From Mytilus edulis (lineage: Eukaryota), in the NCBI RefSeq assembly GCF_963676685.1, contig NC_092350.1:18662001-18726000 (forward strand): 64,000 nt of DNA, given 5' to 3'. Both the position numbers and the translations under genes were made by a program. The notes below the pieces were generated by a model, which made no database searches, was not told where the DNA came from, and worked only from the letters and a program-made list of their open reading frames with translations. Shown here piece after piece: positions 7,022 to 61,284 of this stretch; within the stretch, counting starts at the first letter, position 1, and each line of letters starts with the position of its first letter.

Positions 7022-10000
7022 ATGGCAATGCAAAAAGCAGAGGCGTTGCCGTTCCTTACAGTAGAAGAGGCGATTAGAAGAAGTAAACAAACATTAAGGT
7101 ATCTTGAATTTATCGTTGTAATGTTATTTGAAAAAAAATAGTACTACATGCATACATTCATTTTTGTATAGGGGTAATACAATGTATCTCATTTTTACTT
7201 TCACATGCATATGTTTTCTTTCTTTGCTAATGCTTGTGTCTATTTGGATAAGGGCGGTAGTTTTATATACAATCATGAAGATTGTAAAATGTATGCTAAA
7301 AACTTTAACTCTATAATGAAATAACTTTAATCTAACAAGGTTTATTAAGGTTGTTTGAAGAACAGAATATTCAGATTCTAAAGGGAAAAAATTGATAATC
7401 TGCCGTGGCTTCGACCTACAAAAAAATGTTAAACAAAACTATGAAAACATTTAAGACTTGTTTGACTTAATAAAAAACCTTTACTAGAAATGCTTAAGAC
7501 CATATTTACATTATTGACTTGCTTTCTTCAAATAAAAAAAAACACATTTTTGCGAGTTAGATCAATAATTGACCTTTCATTGATTAAACCATCAAGATGA
7601 AGAGCAACAATCAAGGTATTGTTCTGTTGATGATAAATACATATAACGAGTTCAGCAGTTGAAAGAGAACGCACGTTTTGATCCAGAAAATATCTCTGGT
7701 ACATGTAGCAATACGCAGCTAAGAAATTATTATAACTTAAAATTGACAATCTGAATTTTAACCACTCTTTTCCGCCTGCTTTTTTGTTGTTGTAATAACT
7801 TAAGGGTTTCTGCTATTATCTGCTCTTTGGTCGGGTTGTTGTCTCTTTGACTTATACCCCATTGGCATTCTCAATTTTATTACCGTTTGTGTCATGCATG
7901 TATATGAAACATGAAATCCAATACTTTAGAAAGTGAAATATTATCTCTTTTGGTGTAATCATGGCAACAATTGAATTTATTTAATAAATTTGAGCGATAC
8001 CTTTTCTGAAACCATTTACAACTATTTTACAAGAGGCCAAATACAAATCATATGCATTTTACCATATTTCTCTATACTTATCAAATTAAAAAGATCGAGC
8101 GTATTTTTCAAAAACATTTTTTGTATATTTACTCAAACTAAAAAAAAAATGATTCGCAAACTAGATATCGATATAGTTATGTAATTTTTGATACTGTACA
8201 ACGTCATAGGTTCCAAGAAGAATTGAGTTTGAGTATATGGGAAAGAGCGAGAATAGAATTGGTGTATATCAGAAATCTTAAAGAATGGATGGTATCTACA
8301 GGAAGCAAGTTAACCCCTATTTTAGGTATTAGAATATGGTATATTATATGAGCTGTGTCGGATTGAAATCGACCTTATGCATATCAACATCGAAAAATCT
8401 GTAAACTAATTTGGATTTTGAAAAAAAATCAAAGAAAAGTCTGAGAATGTTGACAAGTTGAATTGTTAATTATATGTTACAAAACGGACCAAACTTGATC
8501 TTTTATTTCATTGCATTTCGTATACGTATGGTCCATGACCAATCAGAGTCTTTTAAATGTAGATATTTACATACACTTGCATAAAGTCGATTTCTATCCG
8601 ACGCAGCTCATATATAATTGGAGATTATATATTTCATAATACATGTATAGTTACCAGATTTTTAATAGAATTGTCATACATGTAGATTTCTATCATAATG
8701 ATTATATAATGTACTCTAGATCTCACAAACTATCGGTGAAAACATGTCAAAACTATAAGAAATAACATTCTGAAATTTAATAAACTTGGAAAGAAAATAC
8801 GGGTTGGCATTTGCTATACCGAGCGTTAGTTTTACGCACTTATAAAGCACAAAGGTGTCAGTATTCACCTCAGAAACTTACAAAACCTTTGAATAGACTT
8901 ATTAAGAAATATAATTACGATACTGTTGTCAAGTCATTAAAGATTGCATATTTTGGCGTTAATATTGAGTCACTGATAAGGTCTTTGCATCGGAACTAAA
9001 CACATTCATTCTAAAAACAGTTGTTGGCATGACACGGGTTATGTTCTTCTCATATATGTTATGATGGTATGATACTAAACCCCTAACGGGAAGGATTGTG
9101 CCTGATGTTCATATGATGAAATCATAATCTTTCAGTCAGTTTAATTGAAGTCTGGAGCTGGCATGTCAGTTAACTGCTAGTAGTCTGTTGTTATTTATGT
9201 ATTATTGTCATTTTGTTTATTTTCTTTGGTTACATCTTCTGACATCAGACTCGGACTTCTCTTGAACTGAATTTTAATGTGCGTATTGTTATGCGTTTAC
9301 TTTTCTACATTGGTTAGAGGTATAGGGGGAGGGTTGAGATCTCACAAACATGTTTAACCCCGCCGCATTTTTGCGCCTGTCCCAAGTCAGGAGCCTCTGG
9401 CCTTTGTTAGTCTTGTATTATTTTAATTTTAGTTTCTTGTGTACAATTTGGAAATTAGTATGGCGTTCATTATCACTGGACTAGTATATATTTGTTAGGG
9501 GCCAGCTGAAGGACGCCTCCGGGTGCGGGAATTTCTCGCTACATTGAAGACCTGTTGGTGACCCTCTGCTGTTGTTTTTTACTTGGTCGGGTTGTTGTCT
9601 CTTTGACACATTCCCCATTTCCATTCTCAATTTTATTATAATTAATATTGTGCATTGCTATTTACGGAATGACTAAACTTTGTCACACAATCCAATATTT
9701 ATGATATATTGTAACTTTGATCACCATTATTGTATGACATCTTATACTGTTTGTGTCTGATAAGTTGAGTCTTTGTGGCTGGATATTGATTGTTTTATGT
9801 GTAAATATTATAATTCATGTATATGTTTTATGGCAATTAATATGTGACACTTAATAAACAAATTTATATATTGTCACATATTTGCGTTTTGTTTGAATAT
9901 ATTTTTTATAAATATTTTTAACAACATAGACTTTAAATTCTGCTTTAAAATATTTGACGCTATTGTTGTTATAGAAAAGGCAAAAGATTTTACTGATGAA

Positions 10001-21953: not shown

Positions 21954-22236
21954 TTGTATACTTATTACGATTTTTTTGTTACCACAATGACTATCTGTGG
22001 GGTATCATGAACTTGATGGGTATCACTTTGGCAGCGCGTTTTTCTTTTTATTTCATTACGTTGTTTAGTTGGAAATTTGAATGATGCATTTAATAAATAT
22101 CAGAATTATTTGTAATTGTTATTATTGATGTCATTGTTATGCGTTGTTTCTTCCAATTTTGGAAATTTTGGGGCGTTTCTGAAATCTACATATCACTTTT
22201 TAGCAAAACCGTCGTTTACCGGAAGTTTAATATTAT

Positions 22237-33524: not shown

Positions 33525-34427
33525 TTATCCAATAAAAAATCCAGAAAATGTACTGAATCCCCAGTGGACATAAAATGGTCTCTGTCCGTAGTTTTTGTTC
33601 TTTTCCATCCACACACGATCCCCCTTCTTCAGATTGAGAATGACTGCATTCATAGCATGATTCCAGTTTGCTTTCCGAGCATCAGGATATACGAGCATTT
33701 TATAAGTGTCGTTAACTTTCAGGAAGACTTCTAACGCAGACCCACACTTAGTTAAAATTGAACACATAAAAACATAGGATCCAGAAAACGGAGCGGTGAA
33801 AACGGATGTCAAACGATTGAAAGCATTCCCTTCATTAGATCTGACTTCCAAAAATTTTATTGTCGCCCCAGGATCAACATTGGATTGACTGTGTGCAAAA
33901 GCCGAAAACGCAACAATTGGTCTTTTTACTGGAACAGAAAGGCGTTTTTCTAATGAAGATATGTCACTCATAATTTTGTCCTGGTTCAATTTGATTTTAA
34001 TTTGATTTTTATCATACAGATCCAGTCTTTTTTCTTGAGAAGCAAGTTTGTCAATAAGTGTTTTATTTTTCAATTGAAGCCGGTCTTGATTCTTCGTGAT
34101 ACGTGCTATCTTTTTAGACGAAATAACAACTTCAAGGTTTTTAAGCACAGATTTAATGTCGTCGATTTTCGACTCATGCTTCTCCAGTTTTCTTTCTTGC
34201 TGTCGAAGTTTCTCTTCTAATCGAGCAGTTTTCATTTCACACATCTCTTTCTGTGAATTGACGACAAATTCTATGGTTTTGAACCAGTTAAAATCTTCAC
34301 CCCTTTTCTTCACACCAGGGTTATCTGACAATAATCTGTCATCATTTCCTTTCTCAAATTTTTCAGTGAAATATAGCTGAACCACGCTTAAGAAAGTTAA
34401 AGCAATAATCCAATAATTATTAACCAT
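33525..34427 (-). CDS. Secreted C1q-domain-containing protein (C1qDC), 300 aa, single exon
   Basis: Hydrophobic signal peptide, long coiled coil, and a gC1q domain (VAFSA, IKF..V.SNEGNAFN...VFTAPFSGSYVF, LNLKKGDRVW, STFSGFFI). Confidence 0.93.
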   Translation of the reverse strand: MVNNYWIIALTFLSVVQLYFTEKFEKGNDDRLLSDNPGVKKRGEDFNWFKTIEFVVNSQKEMCEMKTARLEEKLRQQERKLEKHESKIDDIKSVLKNLEVVISSKKIARITKNQDRLQLKNKTLIDKLASQEKRLDLYDKNQIKIKLNQDKIMSDISSLEKRLSVPVKRPIVAFSAFAHSQSNVDPGATIKFLEVRSNEGNAFNRLTSVFTAPFSGSYVFMCSILTKCGSALEVFLKVNDTYKMLVYPDARKANWNHAMNAVILNLKKGDRVWMEKNKNYGQRPFYVHWGFSTFSGFFIG

Positions 34428-35036
34428 TTCAAGATTAAGGCGTCAATTATTTCGATTTCTATGTTAGTTTAACAGTGCTACCAAAACATTAAAATTAATG
34501 TACATATGTTACATGGTTAAAGTAATAATAGACATTAATTGTATAATTGCATGTCGTCTACATATACACTATTCGTGCAGCGTCGGAAAATATAAAACAT
34601 TTCTTACCCTGCACAATTATTTAATTTAAATTCAATACTGCAATTTAACATTGAACTTAGACGTATAAGTTTTTTCAAATCTTCTTGTTGAATTTGTATC
34701 TGAAGCGAAATTAAATGACTTTTAAACGTGTACCTAAATGAGGACATTATGTTTGATACATAAGTTAGTGACATATATTTTGAAAAATCAAACATGAAAA
34801 AATATGAGAGTGAAACTGCAATATCTATCATGTACTTTTGAGGATGTTATTTACATCCTGACTATATCTATTATTTTTGATACATATGTATTCGTTAATG
34901 AATATCCTCCATTATTTACCCACATACTGAAATAAGGTCAAATATCTGAATGATTATCTCCTATATAAATGAAATATCTCTTTTTTCATTTACCATAATA
35001 TCATAGTATAAATCAGATACACCTGATCGGACTAAC

Positions 35037-37314: not shown

Positions 37315-37609
37315 TATGGAGAATATGTCAAAGAGACAACAACCCGACCAAAAAGCAGACATCATTAAAATCCCGAAAGGTTAATTGGTTTATACCTACT
37401 TAAAAAAAAGAGACAACGGAACAGTTACCAGCATTTAAAATCAATCAACTTTTTGTTATTCTTCCGTTACATGTATAATCAGTGAAAGGGTTACGGAAAT
37501 TATAACTTAAAAAGTGTTACAGGAAAGGAAACAAAGCTATATCAAAAAGCAAAAATAATCGTATATTTAACCACACTTTTCATTCTGACATATAAACGTA
37601 AATCAAAGT

Positions 37610-38791
37610 ATGGCGAATAACACCGATTATGTCGAGGTTCTTTATGATCAGAACTACTCCGATGTCGCTCTAAGCAGTACCATTCTGACAATTATCGGAG
37701 GTATCGTTGGTATCCTAGGAAACGGTTCAGTCATTATATGTTACTTCTTTCGTATTCAGGAAAGAGGAGAGCGTTATTTTATTCCGGTGTTAGCAGTTGT
37801 AGATTTAGTTGCTTGTATAACAAGTTCTATTTTCTACGTTATGGATAATACATTTTTCTTCAATTATCCCAATGATTTTATGTGTCGTATTCTAATATTT
37901 TTGCAGCTGCTTGTGCCAGCGATTTCCGCAAGTTTATTACTTATAATAAGTGTTCAAAGATATCTGTTAGTTTGCAAGCCACACGGACCAAGGATGACAT
38001 TACGTTGGAAGAGGATTGCCATTGTTGTTGCATGTTTGTTTACTTTGACTTACTCTGCACCGGTTCTTGCGATATCTGGAATTAAAACATCATATGAAAC
38101 TTTTCAGAATTATACAGTACAAATTAAAGTCTGTAAATTTTCAACAGCAGAAACTTCAGCTATGACAACAGCTTACTTCGGGTTTCTTCTTCTGTTAACG
38201 ATTATCAGTATTCTGATAACCATAAGTTTGTTCATACCTGTTTTGAAAAAGATACAACTCTCCTTTCTAGGGAAATTCAGACGAAAACGTCAGAATACGC
38301 TACCTGATGATGATTCGGTGCCAAAACATAATATAGAACTTAGAAGATACAAAAGAAAAACTCCTGAAATTCAGATCCAGAAAAAATCCAGCTCAAACCC
38401 AAGCATCAATACATCATCCTCTACTTTGATAGATGATCTGGATATAAATAAAACAGTAAATACTTTCACAACCGAGGACAACGAAAGAACAAGAAAGGAA
38501 AAGGCAACAAGAAAAATAACAATTATGCTTTTTGTCATCATTGCTGCTTATGTTTTATCTTATATTCCTTCTTTAATAACTTTAATCGTAGTATATGTTG
38601 ATGGCGATCTCAATATCGGCTCTATATCCAGGGAGTCAGCATTTGTTTTTATTTACTTTGCGCGTTTTGTCTTTCTTAACCACATTGTCAATCCTTTTAT
38701 ATACAGTTACTTCGATGAGAAGTTTAGAACAGAATTGAGAAAGCTATTAACACAGATAAACAAATGCTGGTTAGTACAAAATGAAAAATAA
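37610..38791 (+). CDS. Orphan class A (rhodopsin-like) GPCR, paralog 1, 393 aa
   Basis: 7 hydrophobic segments; GN in TM1, LAxxD in TM2, QRY in place of DRY, NPFIY in TM7, FR in helix 8; N-terminal sequons. Confidence 0.93.
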   Translation: MANNTDYVEVLYDQNYSDVALSSTILTIIGGIVGILGNGSVIICYFFRIQERGERYFIPVLAVVDLVACITSSIFYVMDNTFFFNYPNDFMCRILIFLQLLVPAISASLLLIISVQRYLLVCKPHGPRMTLRWKRIAIVVACLFTLTYSAPVLAISGIKTSYETFQNYTVQIKVCKFSTAETSAMTTAYFGFLLLLTIISILITISLFIPVLKKIQLSFLGKFRRKRQNTLPDDDSVPKHNIELRRYKRKTPEIQIQKKSSSNPSINTSSSTLIDDLDINKTVNTFTTEDNERTRKEKATRKITIMLFVIIAAYVLSYIPSLITLIVVYVDGDLNIGSISRESAFVFIYFARFVFLNHIVNPFIYSYFDEKFRTELRKLLTQINKCWLVQNEK

Positions 38792-39629
38792 AATGTAAAG
38801 ACACAGCTAAATTAACAAAGTGAGTTTAATTATTCTATTTGAAACAAGTTAACTAAGGCCGTGTTCACATTGATCTAAACTCGGTGATGTGTTAGTGTAA
38901 CTCACACGTAAACTAAACACAATTACGTTCCCATTGATAAAACGTAATTTGTACATGCAGTTTGAATTATTTTAAATTAGTCTACATGCAGTCGATAGTC
39001 AATGTAGGCCTTGCGTAGGTTAAGTGTACATAAAACTAAGCATTTAGAACATTAATTCTACCACGTATATTTAAGGAAGAAACTATTTTTGAATAAAATT
39101 GATATCTATAACAATTATTAATAAAGTTCTTTACAGTATTATTTGTCTAACTTTGCCTGAAATATATTAATTTGTTATAGAGAAAACTTTAGGCAGTTTT
39201 GTTCTGATCTGATGAATGTGCAGAGTTATGGTCCTTGTATGCAAACGATCAGCTTCCACACTTTTGTATACCTTTACAAAACAAAATAAATTATTTGTTT
39301 GAAGGGAAAAGATTTGTTTTGAAAATGATATAGGCCAAGGAAGAATAATGATTTGTACACGTTATTATCTTTTTTCTCACTAAAAATTGTACAAGAAATT
39401 TGTTTTGATTTATTGATGATACGGATTTTAAATGGACAGAATCACAAGACCATCTGAATGAAATTAACACGTGTAATTCTTTCTATATATAAGAAAATTT
39501 CAGGAATATGACAGTTGTCGTCCATTCGCTTGATGTGTTTGAGCTTTTGAATTTTCCATTTCAGTACTTTTTGTGATTTTGTTTTTGCACGATTCAATGC
39601 ATTTTACACACGAAACAACACAGAAAACA

Positions 39630-40760
39630 CATTTCCTTTTTACTACGAGTTACATCCGGAACGGAACAATTATAGCGGATCTCCATACGAAGGAATCAAA
39701 CAAACATCAGTTTTTCTTTTCTCAAAATTGCCACCCTAAACACTGCTCCTGTGGTATCCTTTTCAGCCAGTCATTGCAAGTCTAGAGAATATGCTCAGCT
39801 GAAAATAGAAAAAATGCTAGACCTAGATAACTACTTAAACATTTAGTTGTTCGAGGATACAATAAAAACAGCCCTGATACAGATACCAAAAGAGCAAACT
39901 GAACTAGCCGACAAGTGCAATGAAACAGAATGAAAGAATCAATAGAAGACCTCCTGTACTCACAATCCTGATCTTTAAAATGTATCATCCATTTTTCAAA
40001 AGCATTGGAAAATTAAAGAAGCTGACCCCAATTTAAAAACAAATATATTTTCCTCACCACCAGTTATGACATTAAGGAGACCTTAAATCACCCATGACGA
40101 ATTAGTGACAGCTGCATAAACAAACAACCTACTCCACTTCCCGGTTGAAACAAATAATGTGACAGAAGGAATTGCTTATGTTGTAAAGCTACCAATACAA
40201 AAGAGGTGCGAACGATCCTAGAGGCACATTCAAACTCATAGATAACAAACAAACTGAGAACGCCATGGCCAAAAGTGAAAAAGACAAACAGACAAACAAC
40301 AGTACACAAGACACAACATAGGAAACTAAATACTAAGTTCCACGAAACCTACTAAAACTGGGGTTGATCCCAGGTGCTTTCATCTTTCATCAACTTCTTA
40401 AATGAATAATTTCTACCATTTAATCAGATTTTCAACTTTAAAATGGAGAACTCAATTGATATATTGACACTTAACACTGGTGGCATTCAGTATGTGGGAG
40501 ATACAAAAGACAAATTTAACAGTTGGCTAAATAACCATCGTTCATGGTACAAAACCAACAAGAACTGTATTTTCACTTGACAAATTCGGTCAAAGAAAAA
40601 AAATGATATTGTTACTTTCCAAATCATAGGAATCGACACCACCGAGAGGGACACCACGGTGAGAAGGAGAACAGAAGACGTTTGGATCTACCAGCACCAC
40701 AATTAAGAAACTGACAGTCTTAATGAAAATGTCGAGAAAATATTTAGGAAAGATAATGCA
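39630..40760 (+). mobile_element. Decayed Penelope-like element with C-terminal GIY-YIG (Penelope/Neptune-type)
   Basis: Remnants DLHTKESNKHQF..CHPKHC..I.FSQ..RICS (RT thumb) and QYVGDT..F..LNNHRS..EDVWI (endonuclease); interrupted by a minus-strand family B tail (about 40200-40380). Confidence 0.7.
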
Positions 40761-41164
40761 TAATTTAGTGCACATCGGCACCCTATTTATCCTGTAATAT
40801 TGGCCAATGGGCGTTACAAACTCCAATCACCAATTTTGTAAATAACAAATTTAAAATTCTTTACAAGGCAGCTAAATCCATGTAAACTGAGCTGCAAAAG
40901 TATCTTATCTACATGCGATTTCAACTTTGACTAGCAAAATTATGCATTTATTTTAATTTCATTCTAAACCTTCTGATATGTACATGCTAAATAGTGTGTC
41001 AAAATTACATTGTTAGGCAATTTATAATTTCATTTGTGTAATTGAAATAATCTTTGTACTGATTAATCCACACTAAAATATTTTCATATATCATGTGTTG
41101 CTATTTATACAGGTTATAATAATAGAATGAGGTATTAAAGAAATTTTGATGTTCCATTTTTACT

Positions 41165-41697
41165 TCTTTCTGTCGAAATTTCTCTTCTTATCGATCAATT
41201 TTTATTTCACACATTTCATTCTGTGAATTGTTAAAGTATTCATTCCTTTTCCTGTCACATTACTACGATTATATGACAATAACCTGTAATCTTTTCCATT
41301 CTCAAGGTTTTCGAAGAAATACAACTGAACCACCTAATAAAATTAAAGCAATTATCCAACAATTATTAGCTATTTCAAGATTAAAGACGTAAATGTTTTC
41401 GATTGCTATGTTAGTTTAACGACAGTGTTCCCAACACTTCAAAACCAATGTACATATTTTACATGCGTTATAGAAATAATAGACTTTAATTATATATTCT
41501 CACGTAGTTTACATATACAATATTCATGCAGTGCCGGAAAATTTAAAATTTCTTACCCTGCACAATTACTAAATTTAATTTGATACTGCAATTTAACATT
41601 GAACTTAGATGTTTAAGTTTTTTCCAATCTAAACGTTGAATTGGTATATGAAGTGAAATCGAAATGACTTTTGATCGCGGACAGGAAAGAGGACATG
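41165..41697 (-). pseudogene. C1qDC 5' pseudogene fragment with its upstream region
   Basis: Colinear with about 34195-34747; the start codon is mutated (ATG to ATA) and the C1q domain is absent. Confidence 0.85.
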
Positions 41698-42734
41698 AAA
41701 TTGAACTGTATAATAAACAGTAATTTTAAAATAACCGGTCGCTTATACAAGAACGGGTAACTAGGAGACTTAAATAATTGTAACTAGTACTTGATTAATT
41801 TCACATGACTTGGCGGGGTTTAACCGATTCGCTTTTCTTTGACTAGTCTATCCATATACTTGTGTTTTGTGATAAACTCATCAATGACATGTCTAGTTAT
41901 TGTCATTGATCCGATTAATCATTTAAACAATTTATGTGTCTTCGCAAAGTAAATAGGAGACACAGTCGTTTATATTCTTGTAAAGCGGAGTCTGAAAATT
42001 GTGTATATGAAAGTATAACTATGACGACGATAGTTAAAAGGCATAAGTCGTTATTCTGTAAGGTTTTGATATACTTTGTTCCTTTCCTTTTCATTCCAAA
42101 TGGATTTGCTTTGTTTGGAGGGGCACAAGGATAAGTGGCAAATGATATCTCGACCTTAATGTTTTTGTTTTGTTTTTAGTCTGATAAATTTCGAAATATT
42201 CTCTTTTCCAGCTCGTACTCAGTTCTTTAATTGTATATCCATTAGGTGAAACTGATAGTTGATTACAACTGAGCTAAAAAATAAATATAGCAAGAATCAT
42301 TCCTTTAACACACATCTTCAAATAGACTGTCCTTATCGAAATTTAAACGTTATCAGTTGAACAAATACATTGATAGTCCAATATGTGTAAAGCTTCATGT
42401 TCCTTGTCTGTCAAAATGTTACCTCTACAGTAGAAACGTCGATTGCAGGATAAAGAACTGTAAACACAAGGTTACGTAGCAGCTAGTAAACAAAAGTTTT
42501 ACCAAGTTTTTTTTATTCAAAAGGGCACTGATTACACGGGTTTGCCGATTTTTTTCTACTAATTTTACACATCTACTGTCCGTTATACTTCCGTTACATG
42601 TATAATCAGTCAAAGGATACGGAAATTCTAATTTAAAAAGTTTTAAAGTAAAGGAAACATCTATAACAAATATAATCGGTATTGTATATTTAACCACATT
42701 TTTCGTTCTTACATATATATACGTAAATTAAAGT

Positions 42735-43911
42735 ATGGCGAATAACACCAATTATGTGGAGGTTCTTTATGATAAAAACTACTCCGATGTCGCTCTAAGT
42801 AGTACAATTTTGACAATTATTGGAGGTATCGTTGGGGTCCTAGGAAATGGTTCAGTTATTATATGTTACTTTTTTCGTATCAAGGACAAAGGAGAGCGTT
42901 ATTTTATTCCAGTGTTAGCAGTTGTAGATTTAGTTGCTTGTATAACAGGCTCTATTTTCTACGTTATGGATAATACATTTTTTTTCAATTATCCTTATGA
43001 TTTGATGTGTCGTCTTCTGATTTTTTTGCAGCTGCTTGTGCCAGCGATTTCCGCAAGTTTATTACTGATAATTAGTGTTCAAAGATATCTGTTAGTTTGC
43101 AAGCCTCATGGACCAAGGATGACTTTACGCTGGAAGAGGATTTCCATTGGTGTTACATGCTTGTTTACTTTGACTTACTCTGCACCGGTTCTTGCAATAT
43201 CTGGAATTAAAACATCATATGAAACTTTTCAGAATTATACAGTACAAATTAAAGTCTGTAAGTTTTCAACAGCAGAAACTTCAGTTCAGAATACAGCGTA
43301 CTTAGGTTTCCTTCTTATGTTATCGATTATCATTATTCTGATAACCATGGGTTTGTTCGTACCAGTTTTGAAGACGATAAAACTCTCCTTTTTTGGGAAA
43401 TTCAGAAGTGGGCGTAAGGCAAGTGAACATCGAAATACACCACTTAATACTGATTCGGTGTCAGCAACAGATATTGAACTGGGAAAATACGAAGGAAAAA
43501 AATCCTGAAATTCAGATCAAGAAAAAATCTAGCTCCATTTCGGGCATTCATAGATCATCTTCTTTGATAGATGATCTGGATAATAATAAACCAGTAAATA
43601 CTTTCACAACCAAGGACAGTGAAAAAACAAGAATGGAAAAAGCAACAAGAAAAATAACAATTATGTTATTTGTCATCATTGCTGCTTATGTTTTATCTTA
43701 TATTCCTTCTTTGATAACTTTGATTGTAATATATGCTGATGACGATCTTAATATCGGTACCGGTTCTATTTCAAGGGAATCCGCATTTGTTTTTATTTAC
43801 TTTGCGCGTTTTGTGTTTCTAAACCACATTGTGAATCCTTTTATATACAGTTACTTCGATGAGAAGTTTAGAACAGAATTGAGAAAGTTATTTACATATA
43901 CAACTCTATAG
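42735..43911 (+). pseudogene. Orphan GPCR paralog 2 with a +1 frameshift (pseudogene or homopolymer sequencing error)
   Basis: Two overlapping ORFs join into a full 7TM if one A is removed from the A7 run at 43496-43502. Confidence 0.8.
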
Positions 43912-45013
43912 TAAAAAATACTATATAGTACAAAATGATAAATAAAATGTAAAGACGCAGTTAGATTGAAAAAAAATAGCCAATGTAATCAATCATAAAC
44001 ACGTTAACAAAATTTAAAGTTACTCAATTTCGCTGCTTAATTTGTTGGACGCATTTTGACTTATTTTGATATCATAACCAACTTTCTGTCAACGTTTACG
44101 TTAACTCTTTCTATGTTGCTTTAAGGGAATCATTTCAAACAATAAAAAATGAAGTTGGAGATATTTCTGTGAGAGGTATGTCGAGAACATTTTATTCGAG
44201 TATCCGAGTTTTGAATTTGTACTCAATGGTTCGATTTTTGGTGCGAATACTCGTCAGGAATGTTGTTGATTACTTTAAAAAGTAATTTATAAAATTACAA
44301 TTAATTTGCTAATCTCATGAAATAAATAACATTACATTTACTCCTAAAAAGTGACCGACGACCTTTAATACAGTAGATTACTTTCTGTAAATCAATCATG
44401 ATTACATTAGATTACAGTGTTTACTATGATGTAAAGGGTTTTTAACATAAAAAAAAAACAAAAAAAACCCACTAATTTTTGTGAAAAATTATGAAGAATG
44501 GGCAGAGTAAATGTCCTTGCACGCAATTGATCAGCTTCCACACTTTTGTATACCTTTACAAATAGTAATACATTATTTGTTTAAAGGGAAAGATAGTTGT
44601 GAACATCAAATATGCCACGGAAGAATAATAATTTGTACAAGTTAATTTCTTTTTCTCAAAAAAATTGTACAAAGAATTTTTTCGATTTATTGATGATATT
44701 GATTTCTAAATAACTATTTATTGACGATATTGAATTTAAATGGACAGAGTTATCATCTTTTTCTCATAAAATTGTACCAGTAATTTTTCGATTCATTTAT
44801 GATATTTTATTGATTTTAAATGGACAGAATCACAAGACTATCTGAATGAATTTCTAAAACAATGTAACCCTTTCTACTTAAAAAAATGCCTCTGCTAAGT
44901 CAGGAATATGACAGTTGTTGTCCATTCGTTTGATGTGTTTGTGCTTTTGATTTTGCCATTTGGGACTTTCCAGTTTAAATTTCCCTCGGAATTCAGTATT
45001 TTTTGTGATTTCA

Positions 45014-45807
45014 CAAGAAGTTAGCAATATCCTTTAACTCTTCTTTCCTCTATATAGATGATGTTCTTTCACTAAATAATTCAAAATTTGGTGACTATGT
45101 GGAACGCATCATTCCCATCAAACTAGAGATAAATGATACTACAGATACAGTTAAGTCGGCCTCATATCTTGACTTACATCTAGAAATTGACAATGAGGGT
45201 TGGTTGAAAACAAAACTTTACGACAAAAGAGATGGTGAACTTTCCATTTCTAAGTAGCAACATTCCAGCAGCACCTACATACGGGGTATATATCTCCCAA
45301 TTGATACGATATTCCCGTGCTTGCATTTCCTATCATGATTTTTTTTATAGAGGGTTGCTGCTCACAAGGAAGCTATTAAACCAAGAGTTCCAAATGGTGA
45401 AGTTGAAATCATCCCTTCGTTAATTTTACGGACGCCATCACGAGTTGTTTGACCGTTATGGAATAAGCGTTTCACAAATGATATCGGAAATGTTCCTTAC
45501 GTCGTAATTACAATCCCCTTCCCTTTCATGAATGTGGCCTACCGAATTAGACTATTTACTGGATTTGTTATCACATAAACAACACGACGGGTGCCACATG
45601 TGGAGCAGGATCTGCTTACCCTTCCGGAGCACCTGAGATCACCCCTAGTTTTTGGTGGGGTTCGTGTTGTTTATTCTTCAGTTTTCTATATTGTGTCATG
45701 TGTACTATTGTTTGTCTGTTTGTCTTTTTCATTTTAGCCATGGCGTTTTCAGTTTATTTTAGATTTATGAGTTTGACTGTCCCTTTGGTATCTTTCGTCC
45801 CTCTTTT
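45014..45807 (+). mobile_element. 5'-truncated Naiad-like PLE family B
   Basis: YIDDVLSLNN (YIDD at 45051-62), SYLDL, KLYDKRD, VNFPFLSSNIP, YGVYISQLIRYSRAC; the ORF ends with no C-terminal endonuclease; one deletion and one premature stop. Confidence 0.8.
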
Positions 45808-45809
45808 AT

Positions 45810-46230
45810 ACTACGAGTTGCATCCAGAATGGAACCATTATAGCTAATCCCCATACGAAGGAATCGAAAAAAAACATCAATTTATCTCTCCTAAAATTTA
45901 CTCAGATTCCAACTTAAGATGAAGAACTCAATTGAGATACTTATATTTAACACTTGTATGTAGGAGAAACAATGGAAAATTTTAATAGCCAGCTAGTAAA
46001 TAACCATCGTTCATGGTGCAAAACCAACAAAAACTGTTCTCTCACAAGTTATCATCGCTCAAAGAAACAATTGATAATGCTACTTTCCAAATCAAAGAAG
46101 TCAACGCCGAGTGGGACACAACGGCGAAAATGAAAAGAGAAGACTTTTGGATCCACCAGCTCCACACTTCAGAACCTGATGATCTTAATAAAAAAGACGA
46201 GAAAAGATTCAGGAAAGATAAAGACTAATG
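45810..46230 (+). mobile_element. Duplicated, further-deleted copy of the 39630-40760 PLE relic
   Basis: YVGET..NNHRS..REDFWIHQLHT.EP.DLNKKD remnants; flanks are paralogous. Confidence 0.7.
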
Positions 46231-46902
46231 TACACATCAGCTTCCTATTTATCCTGTAATGTTGGCAAATGGACGTTGCAAACTCCAACCAACTATGTTG
46301 TGAAGGTCATCCAAATTTTGAATTCTTTACAAGGCAACTCAACTCATTTACAATGACTTTCTTATCTACATCCGATTTCAACTGGAAAGATGCATGCTTG
46401 ATGAAGCTAGTTTGTGTAACGAAAAATTGCGTGTTTTTTTTTTTATCGCATTGTAAACTATATAGTGTGTTAGGATTCATTTGTGCAATATAATTAATCT
46501 TTGTACTGACAAATCCACATTCAAATGGATTCGTATGTTATGTGTTGCTTTTTATACAGGTTAAATAATAGAATGAGGTTTAAGGAAATATCCTGAAAAC
46601 AACGTATATTAAATATAAAGTAAATTTTTGGCAGCTGCCCACTGAAAAAATGAGATCAATAAAATAACGGAACATACACCTACTAATACCAACATACACA
46701 AAAAAATGTACTAGATTTTCGACTGTTCTCCTACTACTTTTACAAATCTTCTATTCGTTACATCCGTCAATCTGTAATAAGTGAAATCATTCGGAAGTTG
46801 TAATAAAAAAAATATTTTAAGAAAGGATACAAAGTTATGTAAAACAAATACACAATCGTATATTTCACCATATTTTTTATTTGACACAAACGTGATTAAG
46901 GT

Positions 46903-48066
46903 ATGACGAATAACACTGATTATCTTCAGATTCTTTGGGAACTGAAATACTCTGACGTCGCTGTAAGCAGTACCATTCTGACAATTATCGGAGGTATTGT
47001 TGGAATTCTAGGGAATTGTTCAGTTATAATATGTTACTTCTTTCGGATTCAGGAACGAGGACAGCGTTATTTTATTCCAGTGTTGGCAGTCGTAGATTTA
47101 GTTGCGTGTATAACAAGTTCTGTGTTCTACATTATGGATAATAAGTTTTTATTGAATTATCCCTATGATCTGATGTGTCGTGTTCTGATTTTTTTGCAGC
47201 TGCTTGTGCCAGGAATATCGGCTAGTCTACTAGTCATTATTGGTGTTCAAAGATATCTGTTAGTTTGCAAACCTCACGGACCAAGGATGACATCACGCTG
47301 GAAAAGGATTGCCATTGTTGTCGTATGCTTGTTTTCTTTGGCATTATCTGCACCATTTCTTGCAATATCAGGAATTAAAACATCATCCAAAACGTTTCAA
47401 AATCATACACTACAGATGACAGTCTGTAAATTTTTCACAGCAGAAATTACAGCAAATATAAGAGCGTACATCAGCTGTCTTCTACTGCTAATTATTATCA
47501 GTATTTTGATAACCATAACTTTGTTCATATTAGTGTTGAAAAGGATAAAACTCTCTTTTCTTGGGAAATTCAGAAGTTGGCGTCAGACATTCAAACATCG
47601 AAATACACCTAGTAATACTGATTCAACAAAAGATATAGAACTCTACAATTGTAAAGGAAAACTTCACGGAATTCAGATCCAGAAAATATCTAGCTCAAAT
47701 CCAAGCATTGACGTTTCCTCTTCTTTGAGTGTTGATCTTGATATTAATAAATCAGTAAATACTTTGAAGAAAGAGGACAGCGAAAGAACAAGGAAGGAAA
47801 AAGCAACAAGAAGGATAACGATTATGTTTTTTGTCATTATTGTTGCTTATGTTTTATCTTATATTCCTACTTGTATCATTTTTATTGTAGTTTATACTCT
47901 CCCTGATTTCAATTACATTTCTTTGTCAAGAGAGGCAGCATTTCTAATTATCTACCTTTCTCGTTTTGTGTTTCTAAACCATATTGTTAATCCCTTTATA
48001 TACAGTTACTTCGATCAGAATTTTAGAACAGAATTGAGAAAGTTATTTGCATGTGTAAATGAATAA
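46903..48066 (+). CDS. Orphan class A GPCR, paralog 3, 387 aa
   Basis: Same motifs as paralog 1. Confidence 0.93.
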   Translation: MTNNTDYLQILWELKYSDVAVSSTILTIIGGIVGILGNCSVIICYFFRIQERGQRYFIPVLAVVDLVACITSSVFYIMDNKFLLNYPYDLMCRVLIFLQLLVPGISASLLVIIGVQRYLLVCKPHGPRMTSRWKRIAIVVVCLFSLALSAPFLAISGIKTSSKTFQNHTLQMTVCKFFTAEITANIRAYISCLLLLIIISILITITLFILVLKRIKLSFLGKFRSWRQTFKHRNTPSNTDSTKDIELYNCKGKLHGIQIQKISSSNPSIDVSSSLSVDLDINKSVNTLKKEDSERTRKEKATRRITIMFFVIIVAYVLSYIPTCIIFIVVYTLPDFNYISLSREAAFLIIYLSRFVFLNHIVNPFIYSYFDQNFRTELRKLFACVNE

Positions 48067-49382
48067 GGGGGATATAAAATAATAGTCTGTGTGAAGATAC
48101 AGTTGGCTTAGGCAAATAATCAGTTTCTGCATATTATTTGTTACGCATGAAGATATAGATTGATATTTGGTATACAGTGTTGCCTTTACAAGTTCAAGAT
48201 TAAATCTAAATTTTGTTTAGTTTGTAGGGTTATTTCGAAAGTTTATTGGACTTAGACAATTCAGGCAAATAATCAGTTTTCCACACTTATTTTTGTCATG
48301 CTTGAATATTTTGATGTGATATTAATTGTATAGTTTGACACCGTGACAAGTTATAGATCAAAGTTAATTGCTCCATTACAATAAATTACAATGAATTTTT
48401 AGTTGGTAGGGTAATTGACTTGCAAAACTCTCAGAATGCTACTTTTAGTTATTTTGTCGCTGCAAAATACTCTTTTATTGCGAGTTATAGGGTAATTATT
48501 GTGTATATTAGATGCTTTCAAAGTGTACATATCCGTCAGACATGGCTCACTTGACCTCAATCTTATTTCATGGATCAGTTATCAATGTTCAGTTTTCGTG
48601 ACCAAACCCGAACATCAGATACTATTAGCAACATATTCACTATATTTGTTGTGCGGAATGACTCAAATAGTAATTGTTCATACTCACCTGTCAGTTTCAC
48701 CCGAACTTGACCTCATTTTCATGTTTTATATGTCAGTGTAAATGATTTTGGTCTTGTCAGTTTCTCATATACTGCATATAAGCAAATACAATGCTGTATT
48801 TGGTGTATAGAATTAATCATCATATTTAAGTAAGATCAAGACAAGATCGATTTATTCAATATAAACATTAATAGATGAAAGAGCAGCTAACTCAGAGAAA
48901 ATATTTATCTTTATAAGTTAACTCAGAGAAAAAAATACAGATACATTAAAACATGAGACTCTTAAAACAACTTATTGATATTGAAATTAGAAAGCTGTAT
49001 GATATTCAAACCAATCCTTTAAACTGTTTTTCATCAAAATTAATTTAAAAAAATTCTGAAATAAACAATTTTTATTAACTCATTGTATTACACAAATATT
49101 CTAGTAGTTATCAATTTTTTGTTCACAGACTTTTTGCCTTTATACATAACATTGAACATTGTTTCTAACTTAATTTGTGACTTTTCTCAAAACCTACTGT
49201 GTTTTCTATTTCCTAACAAATTTGTGACTTTCTTCCAGTTACCTTCATATAATCATTTTTGTTTTATATATAACACATCCTCTCTATATTAAACACGATG
49301 TGGGTGTTGTTTCTTGCATATTATGGATTGATATTATTTGTTAATCAGTTAGTTAAAACGTAATATATGATTTTCATTTGCT

Positions 49383-49558
49383 ATAAAACCAGGTTCAATC
49401 CACCATTTTCTACATTTGAAAATTCCTGTACCAAGTCAGAAGTATAACAGTTGTTGTCCATTCGTTTGATGTGTTTTGTCATTTCATTTTGCTATGAGAT
49501 AAGGGACTTTCCGATTGAATTTTCTTCGGAGTTCAGTATTTTTGTGATTTTACTTTTT
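49383..49558 (+). mobile_element. Family D retroelement tail with partial twister-like core
   Basis: CAA-UCC-ACC-AUUUUC(7 nt)GAAAAU-U-CCUG-UACCAAGU-CAGA. Another copy lies on the minus strand at about 50430-50600. Confidence 0.7.
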
Positions 49559-49652
49559 GTTGGTTCAATTATTAGTTATTGGAACTGGAAATTGACTTTT
49601 GGATTCCAATTTTTATAGATAATGGCTTTACTTTATGAAAGCTTTTTTTTAA

Positions 49653-50327
49653 AGGGGCACTTGCTACGAGATATAAACAATCTAAAGTATGATTGTTTTG
49701 GTTCAATAATCAATGAAAGTGAAATAGTGAAATACAAATTCGCTTTTAGTAGCGAGTATGTTTAAATTTTGTCGAACTAATATAAGAAACATTGCTGATG
49801 AATTATTCACTTGCAAGTGAATAATTTGACCTTATGAATCCGTATACATATGAACGTCAATTTAACCCCTGAACTAGAGATGAACAACGGATGAATTGTG
49901 CGTGCTATGTTAGTTAAAGGAAAAGAATGTCAACATTAAAAGTCGAATAAAGGTAAATCATTTGATTTACTGATACGAACCACAAACAATCCTTCTTATT
50001 TAGGTAAAAACGATGATTAACATATATTTTCAATCTATAATATGAAATTATACAGACATAATTAAGCGAGTTTGCTTTCTTTTTTATATCTCTAATAATG
50101 TTTATATTGTTTATATAACTATCGGACGTCTTCAGAGGTCAACTCGATAGTGAAATGGCGTCAAGACTAAAATACACACGTAACAAGGCTACATATTATC
50201 GAGCCCATGCCCTTTATGTTTAGTTCAGACTTTTTTTATAATTTGAATAAATGTTTAACATGGTTATAAATCAAATATGAGAATTTGAGTCAAATAGATG
50301 AACATGAAATTGACAGCTAGTGCCCAT
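49653..50327. mobile_element. Non-autonomous DNA transposon, Kolobok-like
   Basis: TTAA flank followed by aggggcacttgct, and a degenerate agctagtgccc end. A related inverted fragment lies at about 15740-15810. Confidence 0.55.
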
Positions 50328-51124
50328 CTAATAGTATTTAAAGAAATGGTTTTATATTTGGTAGATTAATTTTACTCAAATAATTCTTTGCTAAATTTTC
50401 AGTTGTAATTCATTTGTGTTATATACAAAAGAGTAAAAAATACAACACCCCTTGAAATTTTAAAACGGAACGTCCCTTATCAAATGGCAACACCGAAAGC
50501 TCAAACACATCAAACGAATGGAAAACAACTGTCACATTCCCGACTTGGTACACGCATTTCCTTATGTAGAAAATAGTGAATTAAATCTGGTTATATAGCT
50601 AGCTTAACTTTTAACTTTTTCAATATTGTGTTTTAATCTTGATTACTATAAAAATAAACAAAATATGTCAACAAAGAAAAACAAAATGGCAAATAGACAA
50701 AACCCAAAAGCAGACATGAAAGAAAAAAACCAAAAATGACTATTGCACAGTTACACATGTTTTGGTCTTTCACCAATTTACCACAATGAGTCAGAGATTG
50801 CAAATTAGAGTTGAACCTTCAGTGGGTCTCGAACTGCTTTCAATCTAATTCTTCAATTTCGTTCATTGAATAAAAACATTATATAGGTCACTGGAATATA
50901 CGTTTTTTTGAATATTTAGATGTTCATATTTCTGAAAAAGAAGATAAAAAATGTTGTGTAATAAAACATGAATGTACTTATTACAAAATAAAATAATACA
51001 AAATATGCTGATATCTTATTATACTTAAAGGCTATCTTCAGTACTTATAGTTAACAAGATCAGTATTTAACGCAGACTGATATATAACTTAAATTTCGTT
51101 ACTGTTTTCAATATGAACATTGTA

Positions 51125-52628
51125 AGGCCAATTTCAAGAAACGACAACAACAAAAAACCATGTCAATTGGGCTTCATTTGATACGATATATGCACTTGAG
51201 TTTTTACAAGATAACATTTTTGTTCGCAATGGAGTCTCCGAATATCATCAAGTTGTCGGAATTCCGATGGGACTAACTGCGCACCACTTATTGCAGACCT
51301 GTTTCTGTATTATTATGATTGAAATCAACAAAGACCCAACAAAAAATATCTGATACATGCATTTATAGCAGTTTTTGATATTTGAATAATATTTTGGCTC
51401 TCAATAAAAACGACTTCAGTATGTACACTAAAGAGATTTATACTGATTTCCTGACTTTACATAAAGCTAAAACTTATGTTGAAGTTTGAACAATACCCTT
51501 TCCTATATCTCTAATGTCAAGCTTTATACGAACATTTACAATAAAGGAAATGATTTTTCATATCCTATTGTTAATCATTCATTTCAGGCGGTGACGTTCC
51601 CTTGTCATCATCTTATATCAACTAATTACTAAATGCTATCATCGATACAAAGACATCATTCGTATATATGAATCAACATCCAGACATTTTTATACGTTGA
51701 GGTATTTCTGCTCTTAAATAGTAATATGCTATACAAAGCACATACATGTCTTCATTCAGCACAAAATCTTACCAAACCTTTAAACAGACTTATTCAGAAG
51801 GGATATAGTTACGATACTTATGTTAGATTATGAAAGATGGCATATTTTGGAATTAATATTGACTTACTCATAGGGTTTTTGCATCGGAAATAAAAACATT
51901 TATTCTAAAACCAGTTGTTGGCAGGCTATATGTTATATTCTTCTCATATACATTGTATTTTATGATGATATGATACTAAAACCCTAACGGGAGGGCGTGT
52001 GCTTAATTTTATATCTTTATATAAAACATAATCTTTCAATCAGTTTAATTGAGGTCTGTAGCTGGCATGTTAGTAACTGCTAGTAGTCTTTTTTTTTTTT
52101 TTTGTTTTTTTTTTTTTTAACTACATAATAATTTTATTCATCAAATATTGCTGGTTACATAAACCATCAAGATTCCAAACTTCTCTTGACGTACCCTGTT
52201 ACAATCCACTGACTACCCAGGGAATAATCAGCTAGTAGTCTTTTGTTAATATATTCTAACATCGGTCTTGGACTTTTTTATGCTGTGTGTAATGCCATGC
52301 TTTTTATATTATACATTGGGGAAAAGTATAAGGGGATGGTTACTATATCACAAAATGTGTTAAAACCCGCTGCGATGTTGCGCCAGTCCAAAGTTAGGAG
52401 CCTCTGGTCCTTGTTAGTCCTGTGTGTGTGTGTTTTATTTTAATGTTTCTGTGTTAAGTAGTACATCCATTTTCTTTGGACTAGTACACATTTCTGTTTA
52501 AAATTCAGTTGAAGCGCAGCGCGGATGTGAGATTTTCTCACTATGTTGAAGACCCATAGGTGGCCTCCGTCAGTTTTCTGCTCTTTGGTCTTTTTGACAT
52601 ATTACCAATTTCCATTCTTAACTTTATT
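51125..52628 (+). mobile_element. Older, longer copy of Naiad-like PLE family A, with decayed SECIS and twister
   Basis: RT remnants LEFLQDNIFV, QVVGIPMG.NCAPLIADLFLY and NDFS.PIVN; SECIS homologue at 51962-52007 with the 3' GA lost; twister homologue at about 52320-52410. Confidence 0.8.
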
Positions 52629-53746
52629 TATTTACTTTATTGTCTGGAGATTTTCAACAAACAGCTGATGCTGCCTATTGCTCTGAAGCAGCGAATATAT
52701 TTTGATCCAGCTTTTCATATTTTGATTCTTTGTTTTAACTAATTAATCTGTTGGTAGCTGGAATGAGCAGACTTAATTGTGTTTTTGTACTGTCATGACA
52801 TACGCATTGTCTGTAAATTCACAAGGGGGTGTTTGTGCACACATAAGAATAGCCAAAATTGCCTTCCCTATTCGAAAATTGACCAGAGTAGTTGACTAGA
52901 GTATAGTAATATAACCATCCCTTGATTTTCATTCGACCGACAGTGAAACCCTCGCCAAAACGAGGCTATGTTTGGCTGTGAGGGAGGAAACAAATCACAG
53001 CTAGGTCCTACAAAATGGGGAACTAATAACGATGCCTCGGGTTGAGGGAGTACTACACTCTTTTCATGATAGGAACCTTACAACAACTCTTTGGAAAGTT
53101 TGGCTAGCTCAAATGATTATTTTTGTTTATCCCTATCAAACATACCCTTAGTATCAAGTGGCATTCCAATATTCAAGCCTACCATTCCGGTAAACTTCCT
53201 TTCGTTGATCATAGCTATTATTTCTATTGTTCATGTATTGTCTTCCTGAACAAGCTATTTGTCACTCGACGTAAAGCAAACAAGCAATATTTTTTTTCAT
53301 AATAAAAAAAAAGTCAATGAATAAAATGAGAAGACATTTTTGACGAAGGACGATTTTACAATTCCATTTTTTTATTTTCATAATGTTTGTTCCAAATCAG
53401 ATTATAGGCTATATTACAAAGTGAGTTTTCATGGATATTATCTACAGAAAAACACATATTTACATAAACATCCAAAGGATTATCTTTGGCCTGACATTTG
53501 CTAGGAGAATGCATAATAACGGAACATACACTTACTGATCCCAAGTGAAAAAAAAAACCAAACAACATGCATAGATAATCTAACAGATATCCAATCTGTA
53601 ACATCCTCCGATGTATAATCAGGGGAAGAATCACGGAAAACGGAACTTAAAAAATGTTCTAGGAAGGGAAGCAATGTAATATATAAAACAGTCAAAATTG
53701 TATATTTCCCTATACTTTTATTTTGACCAAAGACGTAAATATCAGT

Positions 53747-54937
53747 ATGGCGAATAACACTGATTATCTTCAGGTTCTTTGGAAAGTGAAATACTCCGAT
53801 CTCGCTCTAAGCAGTACTATTCTTATAATCATTGGAGGTCTTGTAGGAATCCTAGGGAATTGTTCAGTTATAATATGTTACTTTCGAATTGGGAAATGTG
53901 GAGAGCGTTATTTCATTCCGGTGTTGGCAGCCGTTGACTTAGTTGCTTGTATAACAAGTTCTATTTTCTACGTTATGGATAATACATTTTTCTTCAATTA
54001 TCCCTATGATTCGATGTGTCGTATTCTGACATTTTTACAGCTGCTTGTGCCAGGGACTTCGGCTAGTTTATTAATCATAATTAGTGTTCAGAGATATCTG
54101 TTAGTTTGCAAGCCTCTCGGATCAAATATGACATTACGTTGGAAAAGGATTGCCATTGGTGTAGCATGTTTGTTCACTTTTACTTGCTCCGCGCCAGTTC
54201 TTGCGATATCTGGAATTAAAACATCAAATGAAACATATCAGAATCATACAATTCAAATTACAGTCTGTAAATTTTCCACAGCAGAAACTTCAGTTCAGAA
54301 TACAGTGTACTTTGGTTTTCTTCTTTTGTTAACGATTGTCAGTATTTTGGTAACCATTAGTTTGTTCATACCAGTTTTGAAGAAGATAAAACTCACCTTT
54401 CTTGGGAAATTTAGAAGTGGGCGTAAGGCAAGTAAACATCGAAATGCACCACATGCTACTGATTCAGTTTTAACAAAAGACAAAGAGCAGAAATACGAAG
54501 GAAAAACTACTGAACTTCAGATCCAGGACAAATCTAGTTCCAATCAAAGTATAAATACATCTTCTACTATGAAAGGTGATATGTATATCAATAAACCAGT
54601 AAATACGTTCACAACCGAGGACAGTGAACGAACAAGAAAGGAAAAGGCAACAAGAAAAATAACAGTAATGTTTTTTGTCATCATTGTTGCTTATGTTTCA
54701 TCTTATATTCCTTCGTTAATTATTTTAATTCTAGTATATGCTGTTGATGATCTCCAAAATTTTATTTCTGTATCCAAAGATGCAGCGTTTGTTAGTACTT
54801 ATCTTGCGCGTTTTGTGTTTCTTAACCATATTGTCAATCCCTTTATATACAGTTACTTCGATCCGTTGTTCAGAACAGAATTGAGAAAGTTACTTACGCA
54901 GGCAAATAAATACTGGATGGTACAGAATGATAAATAA
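53747..54937 (+). CDS. Orphan class A GPCR, paralog 4, 396 aa
   Basis: Same motifs; the ATG at 53747 matches the paralog starts (MANNT). Confidence 0.93.
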   Translation: MANNTDYLQVLWKVKYSDLALSSTILIIIGGLVGILGNCSVIICYFRIGKCGERYFIPVLAAVDLVACITSSIFYVMDNTFFFNYPYDSMCRILTFLQLLVPGTSASLLIIISVQRYLLVCKPLGSNMTLRWKRIAIGVACLFTFTCSAPVLAISGIKTSNETYQNHTIQITVCKFSTAETSVQNTVYFGFLLLLTIVSILVTISLFIPVLKKIKLTFLGKFRSGRKASKHRNAPHATDSVLTKDKEQKYEGKTTELQIQDKSSSNQSINTSSTMKGDMYINKPVNTFTTEDSERTRKEKATRKITVMFFVIIVAYVSSYIPSLIILILVYAVDDLQNFISVSKDAAFVSTYLARFVFLNHIVNPFIYSYFDPLFRTELRKLLTQANKYWMVQNDK

Positions 54938-60594: not shown

Positions 60595-61284
60595 CAACAG
60601 ACTGTCGGCATTCCAATGTGTACAAATTGTGCCCTCTTCTTGCCGACTTGTTTCTTTATTATGAGGGTCGGTTGAAAACAAAACTTTACGACAAAAAAGA
60701 TGATTTCAGCTTTTTAATTGTGAACTTTCTAAGTAGCAGCAGCACCTGCATACGGGGTATATATCTCCTAATTGATACGATATTCCCGTGCTTGCATTAC
60801 CTATTGTGATTTTCTTGATAGAGGGTTGCTGCTCACAAGGAAGCTATTTAACCAAAAGTTCCAAATGGTGAAGTTGAAATAATTCCTTCGTAAATTTTAC
60901 GGACGCCATCACGAGTTGGTTGACCGTTATAGAATAACCGTTTCACAAACGATATCGGATACGTTCCTTTCGTTGTAACTACAATCCCCTTCCCTTTCAT
61001 GAATGTAACCTCCCGAATTATACTATTTACCGGATTTGTTATCACATAAGCAACACGACGGGTGCCACATGTGAAGCAGGATCTGCTTACCCTTCCGGAG
61101 CACCTGAGATCACCCCTAGTTTATTTATGGGGTTCGTGTTGCTTATTCTTTAGTTTTCTATGTTGTGTCATGTGTACTATTGTTTGTCTGTTTGTCTTTT
61201 TTTTCATTTTTAGCCATGGCGTTGTCAGTTTATTTTCGATTTATAAGTTTGACTGTCCCTATGGTATAGTTCGTCCCTCTTTTT
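60595..61284 (+). mobile_element. Naiad-like PLE family B, internally deleted copy
   Basis: QQTVGIPM.TNCA.LLADLFLY is joined directly to GRLKTKLYDK (the YIDD region is deleted); the 3' UTR is near-identical to 45500-45807. Confidence 0.8.

Follow-up and report, generated by a model that had tools for sequence, protein, structure and literature searches.

Location of the Motif and Its Host Element

The stretch of Mytilus edulis DNA analysed here (the window) comprises 64,000 nt of contig NC_092350.1 (positions 18,662,001 to 18,726,000 of the forward strand, assembly GCF_963676685.1) and contains a cluster of four single-exon rhodopsin-type GPCR genes (37589-54937), the first of which has a 7tm_1 match and one of which is divided over two frames (42732-43911), as well as a small heat-shock protein, a non-LTR reverse transcriptase (RT) remnant and a C1q-domain gene (1915-2523, 22116-23579 and 33525-34442, respectively). 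Copies of transposable elements that carry all or part of the motif under study are found at the following places:

45015..45810, + strand: family B Naiad copy with the motif, 5'-truncated and frameshifted
45015-45501, + strand: RT C-terminus of this copy, with its stop codon at 45505-45507 and its fixed 3' end near 45810
61051..61141, + strand: second full motif, inside a decayed Naiad copy (about 60594-61283)
40195..40378, - strand: related copy that starts within the motif (3' half and tail only)

A sequence-only reading of the window had pointed to a motif at 45580-45669 and about 61051-61141, described as a GC-rich island in the 3' UTR of a Naiad-like element and put forward as a candidate ribozyme. 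All segments that it described are in place in both copies, the GC content is 57% compared with 35% upstream and 31% downstream, and the core pattern of the motif has exactly these two matches in the window (none in 100 shuffles). Both copies belong to one transposon family, hence their mutual likeness shows little: they are identical at 87/91 positions within the motif, compared with 274/300 upstream and 129/142 downstream, and the second copy has one change within a palindrome. As the identity is barely above that of the flanks, the case for the motif rests on other families. The two copies give modest folding z-scores, -2.1 and -2.9, and little difference is seen between the forward and reverse strands, so that the window copies by themselves would also fit a GC-rich stretch without any function of its own, carried by an abundant transposon, or a hairpin at the DNA level.

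The motif begins 72 nt past the stop codon of a broken RT, which has a counterpart at another place in the genome, an intact natural ORF of 1000 aa (90% in tblastn, 93.5% in blastn). This single ORF has N-terminal GIY-YIG, CxC and DKA motifs, as read in the sequence, and a C-terminal RT, while its Pfam matches are weak, both lying under the curated cut-offs (RVT_1, E 1.2e-4; GIY-YIG, E 0.005). The layout matches that of Naiads, which have an N-terminal GIY-YIG, CxC, DKA and RT and form partial tandems (Craig et al., 2021, PMC8557442), and the host element is therefore assigned to the Naiad Penelope-like retrotransposons, in agreement with the context first proposed. The partial-tandem structure with a terminal repeat is likewise found, as the motif recurs at a spacing of 3,361-3,371 nt, corresponding to head-to-tail units of ~3.37 kb, and element copies terminate at a fixed 3' end ~140 nt beyond the motif. 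In the same paper, canonical hammerheads are reported absent from Naiads, and the text covered mentions neither the present motif nor twisters (Craig et al., 2021). Genome-wide, the core pattern has 8,114 matches (reversed control, 0), and a second Naiad family of this genome carries the same motif with another palindrome 1 and another pseudoknot pair.

Architecture of the Motif

The 5' part of the motif consists of the P1 5' strand, CGGGUG, palindrome 1, two variable nt, CAG, four variable nt, N and GCUYAC, and is followed by three nt, palindrome 2, CACCYG, R, four variable nt, a hairpin and the P1 3' strand. In the first window copy these parts are located as follows:

45580..45587, + strand: P1 5' strand, partner of 45662-45669, with direct stacking on P2
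45588..45593, + strand: P2 5' strand CGGGUG, partner of CACCYG at 45630-45635, with one G-U or G-C pair
45594..45603, + strand: palindrome 1 (10 nt), putative intermolecular helix
45606..45619, + strand: conserved core CAG-nnnn-N-GCUYAC, in which nnnn (45609-45612) is the pseudoknot 5' strand
between 45617 and 45618, + strand: candidate cut, suggested by likeness to twister sister only
45623..45628, + strand: palindrome 2 (6-8 nt), putative intermolecular helix
45630..45635, + strand: P2 3' strand CACCYG
45636..45640, + strand: pseudoknot 3' strand, pairs with 45609-45613
45641..45661, + strand: variable hairpin P4
45662..45669, + strand: P1 3' strand

Other families were drawn from a metagenome pattern scan with at least 121 matches, and 121 metagenome, three viral and six own-genome matches make up a set of 130 rows. 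Loci below 50% GC account for 86 rows, and among the matches listed a Naiad RT lies upstream (E <1e-3) in 23 of these 86 compared with 0 of the 44 others; several genuine metagenome copies of the motif have no RT in their flank of 300-400 nt. The 86 rows fall into 30 clusters, whose representatives were picked blind to structure and include likely chance matches and decayed copies. In addition, a 24-row alignment was hand-picked, which combines the two window copies and two further loci with 20 out of 30 cluster representatives and leaves out 10 rows that were truncated, decayed or chance-like.

Across the 30 clusters, P1 forms at least 4 bp adjoining P2 in 17 (with flanks swapped, mean 5.6 and maximum 12), and in 15 of 30 constrained folds P4 starts right behind the pseudoknot strand. 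The invariance of the core and P2 letters in database matches is imposed by the search pattern; the core letters are, nevertheless, identical in three consensi that were found pattern-free, by reading whole UTRs (Skow-1, Skow-2 and Pfla-2, see below). Of the fold first proposed, the outer stem and the palindrome stand, whereas the pseudoknot, a second palindrome lying in the supposed 'linker' and the predicted dimer had been overlooked. The proposed AGCAG/CUGCU hairpin does not hold up as a conserved element, since none of its pairs shows two-sided change, its last pair is broken in 15/24 rows and it can form in the window family only.

Covariation and Palindromes

The pseudoknot (4-5 bp) covaries across families. 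Its 4-mers are Watson-Crick paired in 98 of 120 cells of the 30 clusters, compared with a shuffle mean of 41 and a maximum of 64 in 20,000, and there are 16 distinct fully paired 4-mer combinations when G-U is allowed. Among the matches listed, the full pseudoknot is present in 48/80 AT-rich metagenome matches, 1/41 GC-rich ones and 3/120 from bacterial genomes, with a 407-bp contig that has the complete motif among these three (see below). In the 24-row alignment, 94% of cells pair, all 5 pseudoknot pairs show two-sided change, and all 13 pairs of the pseudoknot and the palindromes vary on both sides. This compensatory change over four phyla largely refutes the notion that the motif has no function of its own, which we regard as very improbable, even though G-U and A-C are equally frequent in the pseudoknot columns (6 and 6). 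The special P2 pair, which is G-U in 26/30 clusters and G-C in 4/30, also speaks against it, as it would mismatch on the other strand in 26/30 clusters. Taken together, the covariation of pseudoknot, outer stem and palindromes across families bears out the earlier suggestion of a conserved structured RNA.

Palindrome 1 has at least 8 Watson-Crick nt in 20/30 clusters (shuffle, 0.9) and palindrome 2 at least 6 in 17/30 (shuffle, 3.2, maximum 11). The central 4 nt of palindrome 1 are self-complementary in 23/30 clusters, in nine different forms, and for the two palindromes self-duplexes of -16.4 and -9.1 kcal/mol, respectively, but no hairpins, are predicted. Because the palindrome centres stay self-complementary, which a hairpin loop would not need, we infer that the pairing takes place between two molecules: both palindromes appear to be kept by selection, centres included, and two copies of the motif would pair through them.

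A dimer of this kind might also serve a non-catalytic purpose, in that the palindromes would join two element RNAs while the Naiad RT would recognise the invariant P2 and core. Pairing through palindromes is reportedly used by the RNA dimer signals of Ty1 and retroviruses, and the pseudoknot in the R2 3' UTR is said to be recognised by its RT; the Naiad RT itself is related to telomerase. The evidence for dimer and pseudoknot fits this explanation equally well, and the P2 letters, which show no covariation and are nearly invariant (as set by the search pattern), would fit recognition by a protein too. We nonetheless consider a dimerisation and protein-binding element unlikely, albeit the main rival, for reasons given below.

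Distribution Across Animals

Among 54 published Naiad consensi (supplement of Craig et al., 2021), at least 12 from four phyla carry the motif, namely two from Clytia (one assigned by file order), five from bivalves, four from hemichordates and one from a fish. These counts refer to the portions of the supplement covered, i.e. parts 1, 21, 22, 25, 26 and 27 as a whole and the remainder by search term, where line breaks may hide terms; in Skow-1, Skow-2 and Pfla-2, the motif was recognised in whole UTRs and not via a term match. By eye, the pseudoknot in these at least 12 consensi is Watson-Crick paired at 4/4 positions and occurs as 9 different 4-mers, and both palindromes are retained, with no more than one G-U. 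In both Clytia consensi (part 9 of the supplement), a further conserved structured motif lies upstream of the present one in the 3' UTR.

Outside animal elements, the 3 viral-contig and at least 120 bacterial-genome matches behave as chance, with the exception of one contig. This 407-bp contig of a bacterial assembly has a complete motif with core letters as in the Naiad_Pmar consensus, and is likely contaminating animal DNA. A covariance model search of the window and 88 loci gave no further divergent family, no short non-coding arrays with the motif were seen among the matches listed, and none of the listed sequences that hold the motif is on record as RNA.

The 3' Slot of Naiad Elements

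The motif is the last structured motif ahead of the fixed end of the element and of a hairpin that directly follows this insertion end. The hairpin (10,404 matches) is common to Naiad 5' ends and hammerhead retrozymes and stands at the start of twister-bearing and motif-bearing consensi alike, which makes it a candidate RT signal. Of 30 loci, two have the motif 242 nt ahead of the hairpin and 11 have a hammerhead core 85-101 nt ahead of it; counting both sides of the hairpin to about 450 nt, 23 loci have hammerhead cores. As twister Naiads, motif Naiads and hammerhead retrozymes have this hairpin in common, it is a better candidate for the signal read by the RT than the motif is, which weighs against a dimerisation and RT-binding role of the latter.

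The same slot is filled differently in family A, a sister Naiad family that matches the Naiad_Mgal consensus and whose RT C-terminus is 60% identical to that of the motif family. It has a twister-like motif in 16/20 copies and the present motif in 0/20, which again argues against RT binding. In the one tandem copy of family A, the twister-like motif lies 181 nt ahead of the hairpin; its Rfam support is weak (18.5 bits, E 0.97). The sequence-only reading had placed the motif at the position of the family A twister, and this is true of the slot but not of the distance from the stop codon. Twister-bearing sequences are located in the window as follows:

9325..9391, + strand: twister-P5-like motif of a third Naiad-like family, containing two palindromes of 10 nt at 9335 and 9346
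33024 (-), 36977 (-), 44889 (+), 49425 (+) and 50554 (-): truncated 3' ends of family A, twister-bearing (starts of the matched core)

The twister-like motif at 9325-9391 lends support to the earlier naming of a twister, as every element of a twister descriptor pairs and the Twister-P5 model scores 23.1 bits, short of its gathering score of 37.6 (E 0.0046 when 181 bases are searched). It belongs to a Naiad-like family (8841-9637 and 51153-52628) in which a SECIS-like element (9051-9115; 32.3 bits vs a cut-off of 35) precedes the twister-like motif, and which is possibly a selenoprotein Naiad. Palindromic stems are seen in the twister-like motifs of Naiad 3' UTRs (9325-9391, family A copies, and parts 11 and 22 of the Craig supplement), and these may possibly be dimeric twisters.

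Among the published consensi covered, Mgal, Bpla and Mphi have a twister and lack the motif. Two points speak against the ribozyme reading: the annotation of Naiad-1_Chem additionally shows a hammerhead core string, and neither motif nor twister was seen at the 3' ends of Esco, Adux, Tama and Mcor, hence neither is universal. In three rows, both the motif and a twister occur at a distance of up to 1,300 nt from a family B RT, and these are taken as neighbouring insertions. In a short RT tree, 1/6 inner branches was supported, and a swap of motif for twister is not proved by it. Hammerheads of Penelope elements that bear palindromes cleave as dimers (Cervera and de la Pena, 2014, PMC4209133), and mussel retrozymes yield circles (PMC7229834). 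Since the motif occupies the place where related elements keep self-cutting RNAs, namely twister and hammerhead, it is itself likely to be one.

Comparison With Known Ribozymes

The motif does not fit hammerhead, twister or HDV, as had been stated from the sequence, and their tested features are absent. The comparison with Rfam 15 that had been proposed, including pistol, hatchet, hairpin and RAGATH, gave 0 matches up to E 10 in 45540-45720. Of the hammerhead core (CUGANGA and GAAA), CUGANGA occurs in 1/30 clusters. The likeness to Penelope hammerheads lies in the location within a terminal repeat, the palindrome-mediated dimer and the mostly solitary truncated copies, whereas the motif lacks the hammerhead core and has two palindromes, a pseudoknot and a four-way stem arrangement (PMC4209133). 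The twister descriptor finds 9326 and, weakly, 44824, but not the motif. With type P5 twister (RF02684), the motif shares the slot and the order of a helix 3' strand, G-R and a 4-bp variable pseudoknot strand, and with the twisters of Naiads also the two palindromes, yet it lacks the U/AA cleavage loop, the P4 stem with its AAGY loop and a second pseudoknot.

A resemblance to HDV P1 had also been remarked on, and a G-rich helix, a G-U pair near its start and a nested pseudoknot are indeed shared features. Between the 3' strands of P1 and P2, HDV-like ribozymes have P4 and J4/2 (C-R-A). In the motif, a single nucleotide separates the helix 3' strand from the pseudoknot strand, so that there is no P4 or J4/2 with the catalytic C; C-R-A occurs there in 3/30 clusters, and the outer stem encloses the motif. 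Membership of the HDV family is thus not supported.

The closest resemblance, a partial one, is that to the loop of twister-sister-like ribozymes, in which G7 C8 U9 C10/A11 A12 lies opposite G36 C37 U38 A39 G40 and C8 pairs with G40 and U9 with A39 (Zhang et al., 2024, PMC11620745). The motif has GCUY-A opposite NAG, and A-U and G-C pairs equivalent to these can form in 24/24 rows, the letters being fixed by the pattern. It could accordingly be a rewired ribozyme of this type, in which GCUY/A and NAG form the catalytic loop and the pseudoknot replaces stem P1. This seems improbable, as G36-C37 is present in 0/30 clusters, position 12 is C (a change that left a relative activity of 0.03 in the LINE-1 ribozyme), no conserved flanking P2 exists and Rfam gives no match; unlike the published types, the motif is moreover pseudoknotted and has both strands in one short loop.

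Copy Ends and RNA Reads

If the motif were cut, traces might be expected at copy ends. The 5' ends of 90 copies fall inside the motif in 26 cases compared with 10.9 expected (P 7e-5), or at 4.0 per 1,000 nt at risk compared with 1.1-2.1, one pair of rows being an inverted duplicate. These ends are spread over the motif with no pile-up on one base, which fits stalling of the RT on the folded sense RNA and does not reveal a site of cleavage. Breakpoints directly after GCUU number 10, not clearly above the 6 and 5 at control positions, and end-and-restart junctions make up 2/10 of these breakpoints compared with 0/11 at the controls, which is not significant. Two copies halt exactly after GCUU and resume further upstream in the element, as template jumps onto a cleaved end possibly would. 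In four RNA runs, whose reads derive from both strands of many host-embedded copies, starts or stops of RNA molecules did not accumulate anywhere in the motif. The lack of a cleavage signature in copy ends and RNA reads is as a dimerisation and RT-binding element would have it; circular templates, lone uncut copies and dimer dependence would, however, mask a site, and these results hence neither show nor exclude cleavage. It should also be noted that ten motifs picked by similar criteria did not cleave (Eckert et al., 2023).

A Dimer-Dependent Ribozyme?

The earlier proposal of a ribozyme is upheld as the best reading, and on balance we lean towards a self-cleaving ribozyme of undescribed fold that is predicted to be active only as a palindrome-paired dimer, a view drawn from comparison of sequences. 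In such a mechanism, two motif copies on a tandem read-through transcript would pair at both palindromes, and each CAG/GCUYAC core would dock on the P2 and pseudoknot strand of the partner copy. Cleavage would then occur once in each copy, most plausibly at GCUY/A, and set free a unit-length RNA of about 3.4 kb that a host ligase may circularise. The RT would copy the circle from a fixed point ahead of the shared hairpin and thereby produce head-to-tail arrays, while lone copies in host transcripts would mostly remain uncut.

Whether this extends to a new structural class is a finely balanced proposition. Such a class would be an obligate, doubly palindromic, domain-swapped dimer ribozyme of cnidarians, molluscs, hemichordates and a fish, which Naiads exchange with twister in one modular slot, and 'ribozyme-free' Naiads would replicate via ribozyme-made RNA circles, like retrozymes. 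A description of the motif was not found in the open-access literature searched, and a real dimer-forming pseudoknot in the Naiad ribozyme slot is apparently undescribed.

Self-cleaving ribozymes are known from about a dozen classes only, and the present candidate is abundant in animal genomes and can be tested with a 90-nt transcript. In Craig et al. (2021, PMC8557442), Naiads are said to thrive without hammerheads, and it is suggested that ribozymes are mere passengers. As the slot is filled in turn by hammerhead, twister or the present fold, each with palindromes, it can instead be argued that cleavage gated by dimer formation belongs to the mechanism. Should the motif not cleave, it would still represent an undescribed dimeric pseudoknot that is conserved alongside a telomerase-related RT.
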